From: Octopus vulgaris
Taxonomy: Eukaryota
Assembly (NCBI GenBank): GCA_951406725.2
Contig: OX597820.1
Span: 25,730,001-25,794,000, forward strand
Reading direction: 5' to 3'
DNA length: 64,000 nucleotides
Numbering within the stretch: position 1 is the first letter of the stretch; each line of letters opens with the position of its first letter. The notes below the pieces were generated by a model. That model was not told the origin of the DNA. It made no database searches and saw only the letters and a list, made by a program, of their open reading frames with translations. The position numbers were made by a program, and so were the translations under genes. Of this stretch, positions 30,001 to 42,000 are shown piece by piece.

Positions 30001-33000
30001 CCAGGCGAGGCTGGCAACAGGCATGAACGGATGGTGCTTTTACATGCCACCGACATGGGGGCCAGACAGGGCTGGCAAACGGCCACGAACGGATGGTGCT
30101 TTTACGTGTCACCGGCACGGGGGGCCAGAATGTTGGACAAAATATCTTATGGCATCAGTTCCATCTCTCAGACCATAGTTTGAGAGACATTCTTGAAATT
30201 CAAATTATGCCAAGTGATTTCAATCCTGCCATTGGCCACAGCTAATCACCAAGTTGAATTTTGAAAGCTGCAATACATGAAGGGTACTGTGACCCATTTG
30301 TTATTATAAGCAATGATGTTGAGTAAATTTCATAACTACTTCATTATGAAACTGGTGTTTATTATTTTCAACTTATAATCAAGAAGGAAGGCAGTACTCA
30401 TGATCCTTTGCTTTAGCTCCAAGATGGTTTGAAAGAGAGAAGAAGGTTTCCTCAACATGGGGACTTAGCTCAAATGCTTGCTTTGTTGACTCAGATAAAG
30501 GCACCCACGATTCTCAGTAGGAGTTTTAAACCAGATTACATACTAAGTCTACCACCCATGTAGCCCATGGTTAATCTGAACTCAAAACACAAATTCTGAT
30601 ATTCTTACAGTTCTGTTAATCCACCATGCTGGAATGGTAGAACAATACTTATATATTTAACCCGAAAAGATGAATGGCAAAGTTGCCCTTGGTGAGATTC
30701 GAAATATGAGCACAGAGAACCAAAACAAATGTTGCAAAGCATTCTGTCTCATATTCTAAAAATTGTCAATTCACAGCTCTATTTGGAATAGGACTTTAGG
30801 ATTCTTACATAAAATTATGGTTGGTTTAAATTTAAATGTAAACACTTTAAAATACATAATGTTCTATCATGACACCAAGAGGCAGTCTCAGACAAGTTTA
30901 TATCCCCAAAAAATTAAAGGTTGGTGTGGCTCAGACACATGTAGCTTTTTTAATCATTGTTTCTTTCATCACTGATCTGGGATAACACAGGATGTTCAAT
31001 TCTGAAATTCTTATCACACATTAATCTGTGATAATCTCACTTGGTGATCAGTCAAAGATTCTGCTTGTACTGCAAAAATGTATCCCAGCAATTACCCACA
31101 ATGTTCAACTACCCAGAAGGCACTAACACTCACTTGTGTTTATGTGACTGTGCTGTGAGGCTGCTTGTTTTTTTTTTAATACAGATTTATGTACTCATAC
31201 CCCTCAACAGCAGACCACTGAGCAGAAAGAAACAAAAAATGAACAAATGGTACAGATGAATATATTCTCTTCTGGAAAAGATGGAGATGAGATGATCAAA
31301 AAAATATGGAGGCTTTGCTGTTGTGAACCATGCATTTGGTATCAATGAATCTAACAATTGTTCCATTTACAAAGTGTATGGAAGTGATTAATTTATTACT
31401 GTTTTTTTTTAAAACCAAACTCCCATGATAAACAAAGATAGATGTATTATATTTTTCTTAATCATATTTAACCCATAAGCATTCAGATTTCTCTGTCAAA
31501 TTTAGTAGTTATTTATTCACATAAGTAAAAATTAGTCATGCATTACTTTGCAGTTTTGAGATTTCAATGATGTAATTGTTTAATTTTAGGATAATATTGT
31601 AGGGTAAGTGTTAGAAGCCGGATCTGGTCAGTTTGAAGATAAAACAGGTAGATTATTTTGGTCGGATATGGCCGGCTTAAATGCTAAAGGGTTAATGGTG
31701 ATTTTATCCAACTCATTTTGTTTGGATTGACAGAATGGGTTAGGTTGAGTATTGGTCTAAATCTAAGCTTTTAGATTCTATCAAATCTGAACTTGAAAAA
31801 TTCAAAGTTGTGGAATTTTCTGCAACTAAATTCACAAACTTGCTCCAAATTCTAAAATCAAGAAAATACTGCTTGGAACTTCACCATCATACTAATGTAG
31901 ATTTTATTCTTTCAGCTAAATTATCACAAGATCTTTTTTACAGATATCAAAAAAAAAAAAAAAAATCAATGGATGCCTTTTTGTCTTGTCCTCATCCTGC
32001 CCTTCTAATTTTCTTCTTTTCCCGATGCCATTTATTGCTATCTTTTTTTGTTCACAGTTCCTGGATAACCTACAATTCTATCTGCCCCTAGACAACAGCT
32101 TTCTCATGGACAATTTTAAGTCCGATGTTGAGACTTTGAGTCACCAATGGAGAATGTTAGGACGGCCGGTTATAGTCTTTCCTGTCAGCAAGATGATGTT
32201 AGGTGGGCTGACTTATCTTGTGTTTGGAAATTTTCTTTTCCATTTATGTGAGCTCCTTAAACGCCAACCCACCACTGTCTTAATTGTCTTTTTATTTAAT
32301 TATTTATTTATTTAATTTATTTATTTATTTATTTAATTATTTATTTATTTAAAGATCGCTCTAATTTGGGGCCTGATTTTACTACATTTCTATAACTGCA
32401 TGCTTCACATGTCTTTGAAATATTGCACAATGAAAAATGATTTTTCTTGAAATAACAAAAATATTTCTTCTAAAATAGAAAAAGTAAACGATATATTAAC
32501 GTTTTGATATTACAATTTCAGATGAGTGCTGGTTATAAAATTACCAATTTTTACTGCTTTATTTATATTTTTAAGAATACAGTGATGCTAGCATAGATCA
32601 AAAAAGGGTAGAGGTGGGACTTGAAGAGAATATTTATTCTTGTTGGTTAGAAAATGCTTCTCTGTCTCTATAAACAGTAGGCCATTTTTTGTGTGGCATA
32701 ACACATATGGATTGAAAACAGTAGAGACCTCAGTTGTGAATAAAAACTTCAGTGTGGTTGCTCAACCTGCTAGAGATAGCAACCAGATCTCCTTTAAATC
32801 ACATCTTATCTAAAACTGCTGTCAATCAGGGTTAACTATGTATCCTCACATGGAAAGTTCTCCTCTAATATACCTGGATGCTAGAGCCTGACCAAAGAAG
32901 ACCAGCTGGTGCACATGCACCAGGTGTCCCCTCTCTACATCACTGATGTTGTTTATAATAATAATAATAATAATAATACTTTCAAATTTTGGCACAGGGC

Positions 33001-39000: not shown

Positions 39001-42000
39001 AACAGTATCCTGCCAGAAGCATTCAAATTTCTATCAGCCAATCGTATTGGCTAGAGCTTTGTTTAATCTGAAGAGAGTAAAGGGGAAGTTGATTTTGGAA
39101 TCATTTGATTTCAGGGTGCAGTGTACCTTTACAAAAACCACAATTCATTTTACCCAACACACACACACATACACACAAACTTGCAATAGAATAAAAGTAT
39201 TAACAGGCAAACAACTCGTATCTGGTCAGATTGTGGCATTTATATATTTATGGAAATTATATGGAGAAAGGAAGCTTTAAAGAGCTTAAAAATCACAATA
39301 GATAAATCAAAAATTGGTTTAGAAATCTTCATAATGGTTGTGCACAATCTTACCTTAGAACTATTCTAAGCTTTTCACATGGTACAACCATGGATGCTTT
39401 TACATGGCACTGGTATGTGTACTTTTTATGCAGCACTGGCACAGGTCCTTTCTCATGGCACTGACATGGGTGCTTTTTATGTGGCACTAGAATGGTGCTT
39501 TTGCTGGCCAAGGAGGGCATTAACACTTCTGTTGTGGTGGATATGTCTTCTTGAATACAGCAAGGCACCAGATATCTTGGTCAAATATATAAATATCATA
39601 ATCAGACCAGATACCAGTTGTTTGCCTGTCCATACTTTATGCTATTACACATGTACCAGTTTGATTGACCAGATATATACTTAACTGCATATAAATATAT
39701 ATTTTCTTAGAGGGTTCAAACACAGTATACTTCATTCAAACTTATTTCTCAATATATGATCCAAATATAGAATTTTACAATCTTTCTTTTTATTATAGAG
39801 ACCACATTACAGCTATTTCAATCATTTTTGATTGCATCAAACACGAACCACATTTGATGAAATCAACCATATAACAATTCAATCTTTGTGTCTTTTTTTT
39901 TTACTCTCACGTCTAATAATTCTCACATATTCTTTATTTACTCACATATTGGTGTTTTTTGTCTGTTTATGTGGATGATATCATTAAAACTGCATGGTTT
40001 GTTCCCTCTTCAGTTTCTGGACCGACACCACTTTTTTGCAGTTCTTGATCCTCAGTTCATTGTAGATTTTATGCGTTGGGAGATTAGCTTTTTAAAGAGC
40101 AACTGGAAAGCCACAAAAGGGAGACCTACTTTGATTGTCGTTGTTCAACCTTGGGTTTTAGGTAAGGCACTCAAGAATTCTCACTTGTAAGCCCAGTGGA
40201 CAGTGTTGCTTCAGTAGACTAGTTTTGCAGTGTTCTTTATTTTTACTGCTTCTTATATGCACGATAGACAATGTCTTTCTACAAATACATATGTATCCAC
40301 CTATATATATATGTATGTATGTATGTATATGTATGTATGAGCAAATATATGATTATGCATACATGTATAGAGACTATTGAACTTTCATATTTACATGCAG
40401 AGTAAAAGAGGGTGTATCTATTTTATTAGATGGTAAAGCTTCTTAAATTGTAACTCACATTATCAATTACTCATATAATTGGGGTAAGAAAGCAGCCTGA
40501 CAGTAAATATGCTAAAATGTTTATAAGCACATTGAAATATGAATAGTCTATTGTATATCAATAAATAAGTGGTATGAAAAAAAAAATTAAAAATTTATCG
40601 TATATTCTGCTGTTCAATCTTGATGTACAGAACATGGGATATTCTTTTCTACTCTAGGCACAAGGCCCAAAATTTGGGGGGGAGGGACCAGTCAATTAGA
40701 TTGATCCTAGTATGCAACTGGTACTCAATTTATTGAACCCCGAAAGGATGAAAGGCAAAGTTGACCTTGGCGGAATTTGAACTCAGAACGTAAAGACAAA
40801 TGAAATACCGTTCAGCATTTTGTCCAGCGTACTAACGTTTCTGCCAGCTTATCGTCTTAGAACATGGGATATTCACATCTAGTTATGTACAAAAACATAT
40901 TTTAATGTTCTGAGGATTAGTATGTGTATCAAACATAAGCATGGAAAGAGCTATTGCTAATTAAGTTTTAGTGTTGATGAATAACAGAATATTTGTTTAA
41001 TTATATAACTATCTTTCAGACTATATTAAATCCATTATATAAGAAATAAATTATTTTAGCCACTTAGTCATTGGAAATCCCTCAAAAAGTAGTGATAGAG
41101 ATGCTTACAAGAATTCGCAATTCTTATCACTTATTTAAAATTACAAAAATCTTCAACAAGTGGCAAAGATCCCACTTTCTAGAATCATTTGTGTGTTCTG
41201 TAATGGATCAATTACTTTTACAATTGTTGATATAGTCACATAATAGACAAATGTGTGATGCATTTTCTTACGGTTTTTCTGTCTGCAACTAATCAGAACT
41301 TGATGTACTGCTGACTAATCATATTTCGATGGTTGCAATGATTTTTACTTATATGTTGTCTCAGTGCTTTCATACATTGTTTCAACAATCAATAAATTTT
41401 CAGTTTTGATTTAAGCAGTTTCAGCTTCTAACAATCTATCTACCTATCTGCTTATCTCTCTCTCTCTCTTGCTCCATCCATCTCTCTCTCTCTCTCTCTC
41501 TCATATATATATATATATATATATATTATATATATTAACAGTAATGGTGAGACAACAAAAGAATGAATGAGACCTCGATATTATGTAAATAGAGGAATTT
41601 ATCTGTAATATAATATATGACAATTATTCGGTTGGCATAATAAGACTCCGAGTTTCGGATGTCGGGGTGGAAATCTGCTCCAACATTTCATCAGTTATCA
41701 AGGCAATCAAAATATGTTATTATTTTGATTACCTCAATGACTGACGAGATGCCAGAGCAAGTTTCTGCCCCAACATCCGAATCACGGAGTCTTATGGCAA
41801 CCAAATAATTGTCACATATTATATTACAGATATATATATATATATATATCATGTCATCTGAAACCTCTCTTGTTTCTTAACTGTAACAAAGCTAAATCAG
41901 TCTTTTGAAATAAACTGTTAGTTTCTTTCTAACTTTCTAACTTGGAAAAACATTTCTAACACAAGATAACTTTCTATCACATCTTTCATATCCTTTTTGC

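Follow-up and report, generated by a model that had tools for sequence, protein, structure and literature searches.

Two tandem copies of one exon, spliced mutually exclusively, in the phosphorylase kinase alpha gene of Octopus vulgaris

The stretch analyzed here (the window) consists of 64,000 nucleotides (nt) of Octopus vulgaris DNA, positions 25,730,001 to 25,794,000 of contig OX597820.1, and carries part of the gene for the alpha subunit (PHKA) of phosphorylase kinase, the textbook switch of glycogen breakdown. Two exons of this gene, A and B, arose by tandem duplication of a single PHKA exon and are spliced mutually exclusively. As the best explanation of the data as a whole, to which we give a probability of about 0.8, the A and B forms are two alpha subunits that differ in a piece of 48–49 residues, placed by prediction in domain D2, and this difference probably tunes the regulation of the kinase. 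The same segment is swappable in other molluscs, an annelid and arthropods.

Sequence and reading frame of the two exons

Exons A and B are both bounded by AG and GT, both are of phase 0-1 and both frames are open. Their coordinates, splice ends, phases, lengths of 145 and 148 nt and peptides, as given in an initial annotation made from the letters alone, were all reproduced (Table 1). The two peptides share 15 of 49 residues (31%, BLASTP E 7e-8), which confirms the weak similarity reported earlier and slightly raises its figure of about a quarter. At the nucleotide level 62 of 145 positions are identical, with a gap of one codon. Both exons match residues 524-571 of human PHKA1 (E 4.5e-9 for A and 6.8e-4 for B). 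When the six frames of the window are searched with a profile of the family, A scores 81.7 bits and B 66.1 bits; the next-best place reaches only 3.4 bits, indicating that there is no third copy in the window. No other duplicated exon was found within the window (best off-site E 0.067), and a search of the octopus genome with exon A gave matches only at A and B. The introns flanking the two exons have no residual similarity to each other, the longest shared stretch being 20 nt.

With A alone or B alone, the frame remains open into the constant downstream exon D at 49768. When A is joined to B, a stop appears 32 nt into B, after 10 codons; the initial annotation had correctly predicted a stop for double inclusion, but had called it immediate. 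It had also placed exon 49768 out of frame when both copies are skipped, and there the stop lies 30 nt in. Because splicing both exons or neither shifts the frame, only one-of-two splicing makes protein.

Isoforms and transcripts

We retrieved 21 octopus proteins, a count that five further members of one protein cluster lie outside. Eight contain A and 13 contain B; no protein has both copies or lacks both. Both forms are present in O. vulgaris and in O. bimaculoides; all five proteins listed for O. sinensis are of the B form. The translation of the 17 constant exons plus A equals 662/662 residues of a named O. vulgaris PHKA isoform (P0018).

Transcripts were analyzed through the assembled contigs of four of 24 listed runs, aligned to positions 25200-41000 of the window. 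Words of exon B are present in 21 of the 24 runs, from 12 studies. The four runs were taken as RNA on account of the spliced joints in their contigs. In run X8, a contig of depth 30.1 extends 113 letters past the preceding exon and ends two letters into the start that A and B share. A and B are covered by two further contigs, 199 and 202 letters long, which are the lengths predicted for the two arms of an assembly bubble built with 31-letter words (28+145+26 and 28+148+26), and the arm depths are 12.8 and 16.2, compared with 30.1 upstream. In run X1, the constant upstream exon U and exon A, 3.8 kb apart, are joined in one contig; the match of another contig ends at the splice sites of B. No B words occur in the other two runs. 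The X21 contig, at depth 42.2, runs on unbroken for 74 letters after the upstream exon, and 42.2 x 74 / 527 = 5.93 explains the depth of the A bin; in X23, the A contig extends 52 letters beyond A, farther than the position at which a B arm would interrupt it.

The occurrence of A only in X21 and X23, and of A and B in X1 and X8, hints at sample-dependent exon use, read from assembled contigs that lose rare forms. We think it likely that the ratio of A to B differs by tissue or condition. The proposal of the initial annotation that either copy is spliced in and that both are used agrees with the 21 of 21 isoforms that carry exactly one copy and with the two-armed bubble of X8. Exon B is in use, as seen in the contigs of X8 and X1, and 49/49 of its residues are the same in named proteins from three species of Octopus.

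Distribution and age of the exon pair

The exon swap had been suggested as a peculiarity of the octopus lineage. This did not hold up. We surveyed protein records of 22 hand-picked species with at least two proteins each, and in 16 of them two to four versions of the segment are found. The 16 comprise two octopuses, a limpet, Aplysia, Biomphalaria, a scallop, an oyster and a mussel (four versions each), the annelid Owenia, and, among arthropods, a horseshoe crab, two spiders, a butterfly and three dipterans. Only a single version was seen in five species (O. sinensis, cuttlefish, abalone, apple snail and sea star). The 60 residues upstream of the segment are identical in 20/20 pairs and the 40 residues downstream in 19/20, the remaining pair matching at 38/40. 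Such near-identical flanks indicate that the versions are forms of one gene. In addition, 23 gene models among all retrieved proteins hold copies of the segment in tandem; in Dreissena, the remaining species of the 22, both copies lie within one such model. The order is A then B in the octopus and in the tandem models of Dreissena, Biomphalaria and Elysia.

In oyster (P0063, P0074, P0106, P0122) and mussel (P0092, P0118, P0509, P0510), one version is B-type and three are A-derived in the tree described below. The mayfly protein P0247 contains two full copies of the segment and part of a third in tandem.

A tree was built from 67 segments and 48 columns. It excludes isoforms that are nearly identical, beta subunits, the third mayfly copy, which is partial, and most representatives without a name; the labels for outgroup and vertebrates were assigned by us. 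Octopus B falls inside a mollusc clade of 12 rows (support 98/88) and octopus A inside a mollusc clade of 19 rows (94/95). The first and second copies of arthropods form separate clades (100/99 and 99/95). Profiles made without cephalopods gave the same assignment: with sets defined by the tree, A scores 81.4 bits as A-type vs 50.1 as B-type, and B 41.5 vs 58.1. With sets defined only by the order of copies (first or second) in three non-cephalopod tandem models, the scores are 60.6 vs 45.3 for A and 38.1 vs 51.9 for B. A triad of residues, R544, E546 and K551 in human numbering, is present in octopus B and in 11/11 mollusc B rows. Among 17 A rows, R544 and K551 occur in none and E546 in two. 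E546 together with K551 is found in 10/11 arthropod first copies and 0/11 second copies, which hints that the arthropod first copy and mollusc B share an origin, though they stand in opposite order.

The age proposed in the initial annotation is consistent with this grouping of A and B with the respective copies of other molluscs: the duplication is probably older than the split between cephalopods, gastropods and bivalves. The mollusc and arthropod pairs may have one origin or several. The initial annotation had also drawn an analogy to the vertebrate muscle and liver paralogs PHKA1 and PHKA2. This analogy is weak: neither copy groups with the vertebrate-like rows, two representatives of which share 36/48 residues compared with 15/49 between A and B.

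Position in the protein and predicted effect

PMC4839068 places the glycosidase-like domain of PHKA2 at residues 9-453. Since the swapped segment lies past this domain and before the D2 residue Tyr593, it most probably belongs to D2. In the human enzyme, according to sections of PMC10978961, D2-alpha touches the gamma subunit's N-lobe via Lys588 and Tyr593 and takes part in the alpha1/beta2 interface. Sections of PMC11950179 describe D2-alpha as pulled by D2-beta upon phosphorylation and as helping to keep gamma inactive.

Across 53 aligned rows, D535, W554, G558 and P560 are kept, and positions 539, 543, 547 and 550 are hydrophobic and fall on one face at 100 degrees. From this pattern, the swapped piece would be a helix plus a strand, in which the hydrophobic face and the D/W/GRP skeleton are kept and other positions change. 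Exchange of A for B would alter the packing of D2, or its contacts in the relay from beta to alpha to gamma that holds the catalytic subunit inactive. We put even odds on this picture of fold and effect, drawn as it is from aligned residues.

Exon 16 of human PHKA2 carries the disease missense Ile566Asn, as tabulated in PMC4839068. Both A and B have Val at the column aligned to Ile566, with equal numbering assumed for the two human proteins. A putative disease variant at PHKA2 Arg556, which would also lie in this exon, was not found in PMC4839068, PMC8518678 or PMC12111550 and is not used here.

Splicing control

The AG-free stretches before the acceptors of A and B are the two longest among 19 acceptors, in a comparison chosen after the fact; those of the constant exons have a median of 30 nt and a maximum of 111 nt. 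In human genes, AG-free stretches of at least 100 nt have been linked to alternative splicing, as stated in a portion of PMC1431707. Two constant-exon acceptors in the octopus gene, at 5931 and 8923, have stretches of 111 and 98 nt.

Two known ways of locking a pair of exons were considered and rejected. In steric exclusion, the branch point of the second exon lies within about 50 nt of the donor of the first. Here 7,811 nt of intron separate A from B, and at such a distance of 7.8 kb between the copies a steric lock is excluded. Incompatibility between U2 and U12 splice sites is ruled out as well, because none of the donors GTATTG, GTGGGC and GTAAGG has the U12 consensus and none looks to be of the minor-spliceosome type. 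A third possible lock, the pairing of a docking site with selector RNA elements, would need complementary sequences in the introns, conserved and in competition for a single site. When regions flanking the exons were compared in 15 pairs (430-510 nt per flank, octopus only), the longest stretch of perfect complementarity was 11 nt and AT-rich.

We slightly favor a mechanism in which the choice between A and B would be made by regulated use of the 3' splice sites, involving the long AG-free stretches and a weak donor on A, and in which nonsense-mediated decay would remove messages that carry both exons or neither.

Alternative interpretations

Several observations weigh against the interpretation given above. 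In the contigs, the U-B, A-D and B-D joints were deduced from lengths. The comparison of AG-free stretches was made post hoc, and one constant exon reaches 111 nt. The hydrophobic moment of residues 535-554 peaks at 100 degrees (0.81) and is higher at 160 degrees (1.0), so that the helix call is not clean. The gamma contacts Lys588 and Tyr593 sit in the constant exon D, outside the swapped segment, and term searches of both cryo-electron microscopy (cryo-EM) papers (PMC10978961 and PMC11950179; six residue prefixes each) returned no residue of 524-571. The tree has only 48 columns and places octopus B on a long branch (0.82). In the approximately unbiased (AU) test, a cephalopod-only duplication, with the three cephalopod rows as one clade, is not rejected (p 0.10), nor are five other groupings, which bear on an origin common to mollusc and arthropod copies (p 0.21-0.30), so that none of six tests rejects. 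No B-type was found in the cuttlefish, where five of eight cluster members cover the region and all are A.

The location of the named gamma contacts raises the question whether A and B, both used, give subunits that behave alike. A duplicated exon that shifts the frame would be tolerated only as one or the other, and the choice would be unregulated; the similar depths of the two X8 arms agree with this. We nevertheless consider it unlikely, given that the copy-specific R544/E546/K551 are kept across classes (11/11 B rows), that both copies are retained in many lineages and have become four in oyster and mussel, and that two of the four runs contain A only.

A second possibility is that the octopus pair arose by a duplication confined to cephalopods or octopods and converged on the pairs of other molluscs. 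The support values of the tree, the profiles based on order alone, the triad and the A-then-B order in the tandem models of Dreissena, Biomphalaria and Elysia make this improbable, even with the AU result of p 0.10, the missing B-type of the cuttlefish, and the precedent of three separate origins for one ACOX1 event, described in part of PMC8373072. That B is a degenerating pseudo-exon or an artefact of gene prediction, as its long branch, unusual residues and absence from the contigs of two of four runs might suggest, is very improbable and largely refuted by its identity in three Octopus species (49/49 residues), its predominance among the 21 isoforms (13 vs 8) and its spliced bubble arm at depth 16.

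Relation to known systems and significance

Two alpha subunits made by swapping one exon, the interpretation we prefer, belong to a known class of event. The fly orthologue of PHKA is CG7766 (from a section of PMC12452063), and this gene is among the 154 listed by name only for a tandem duplicated exon in Table S4 of PMC9741552, a table that names Hatje and Kollmar 2013, on the mutually exclusive exome of Drosophila, as one source. The gene is orthologous and the class of event is the same. The table gives no exon, age or function; the entry presumably refers to the same exon as octopus A/B. Proteins of the dipterans Anopheles, Glossina and Hermetia swap the same segment as the octopus, but the E546/K551 copy is the first one in arthropods and the second in molluscs.

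Three other systems invite comparison. In vertebrates there are likewise two alpha subunits per animal, PHKA1 and PHKA2, but these are whole-gene duplicates whose vertebrate-like representatives form a group of their own, 36/48 identical in the segment. The duplicated exon of human PHKB, the paralogous regulatory subunit, shows muscle and non-muscle use. It resembles the octopus pair as an internal swap of homologous exons, but it is another exon, of 30 residues, dated to jawed vertebrates (event 158 in the supplement of PMC8373072, from which PHKA1 and PHKA2 are absent). The Ca-alpha1T/cca-1 pair, as described in part of PMC9741552, is a precedent conserved in protostomes, common to arthropods and molluscs and absent from chordates; it belongs to an ion channel with a claimed single origin, whereas PHKA is a metabolic regulatory subunit whose exon has two to four copies, of one or several origins.

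Full-text literature gave no account of this PHKA exon; subscription papers (e.g. Hatje and Kollmar 2013) and most supplements lie outside that coverage and may list it. A search combining phosphorylase kinase, alternative splicing and octopus had no match. PMC3303723 mentions neither CG7766 nor phosphorylase, PMC3228551 mentions only the gamma-subunit gene of phosphorylase kinase, and CG7766 appears in passages of PMC12452063 and bioRxiv 795716 that do not mention splicing of the PHKA exon. The event class is already known and the fly gene is catalogued, and both octopus forms stand unremarked in public annotation. The present analysis adds the breadth over molluscs, an annelid and arthropods, the expansion to four copies and the predicted position in a regulatory domain.

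The role of D2 has become visible only recently, by cryo-EM. Two to four interchangeable, deeply diverged versions of a predicted D2 piece would provide a natural mutagenesis series for the relay, in an exon that includes a human glycogen storage disease missense. A metabolic enzyme also joins the short list of cases in which molluscs and arthropods have an exon pair in the same place. More speculatively, and on balance doubtfully, the PHKA exon may have been a swappable cassette since the protostome ancestor or a recurrent hot spot of duplication, with two copies of it in an annelid and most molluscs and arthropods, and four in oysters and mussels. The swap would retune the D2 relay, and invertebrates would set tissue-specific glycogen mobilization by splicing where vertebrates use gene duplicates.

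The surrounding locus

The part of the gene in the window has 17 constant exons in addition to A and B; neither the first exon nor the 3' half of the gene was located within the 64,000 nt. The octopus gene product matches PHKA over its full length, contains PF00723 and PF19292, and is nearer to alpha than to beta. One alpha locus was detected in the octopus genome with a conserved N-terminal exon as query; the search was loose, and the beta gene escaped it as well.

Table 1. Features of the PHKA gene in the window (positions of the window)
Feature	Position	Strand	Description
Phosphorylase kinase alpha gene, part	5931..52771	+	17 constant exons plus A and B
Constant upstream exon U	28165..28274	+	110 nt; ends in phase 0; contigs pass through
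AG-free stretch and acceptor of A	31944..32057	+	112 nt; CTAAT motif 53 nt upstream, putative branch point
Alternative exon A	32058..32202	+	145 nt, 48 aa, phase 0-1; donor GTGGGC; mollusc A-type; corresponds to human PHKA1 524-571
AG-free stretch and acceptor of B	39813..40013	+	199 nt; CTAAT motif 101 nt upstream, perhaps a distant branch point
Alternative exon B	40014..40161	+	148 nt, 49 aa, phase 0-1; donor GTAAGG; mollusc B-type, with R544/E546/K551 (human numbering)
Constant downstream exon D	49768..49843	+	76 nt; codes Lys/Tyr aligned to human Lys588/Tyr593 (gamma contacts in a section of PMC10978961)

The exon that follows position 52771 was not found in the window, which makes the intron longer than 11 kb. 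Beyond the exon that ends at 52771, at about residue 690, octopus isoforms vary in a single Ala and in an optional piece of 17-18 residues rich in Ser. Farther downstream, in the 3' part of the gene outside the window (about residues 965-1010), the octopus isoforms (P0001-P0021) have differing stretches of 25-35 residues rich in Arg/Ser motifs. This variable region is reminiscent of the multiphosphorylation region that is alternatively spliced in vertebrate alpha subunits.

The introns contain several kinds of repeats. A long ATT/ATC trinucleotide array occupies positions 13450-13800, directly after the donor of exon 13352-13450. Interspersed repeats at 25640-25825, 29500-30130, 33400-33550, 35350-35650 and 40750-40800 show a very high summed depth in each of the four runs. 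They probably derive from transposons, as do a tandem unit of 124 nt at 29786-30128 and related units of 25-78 nt at 21071, 39370 and 47691.

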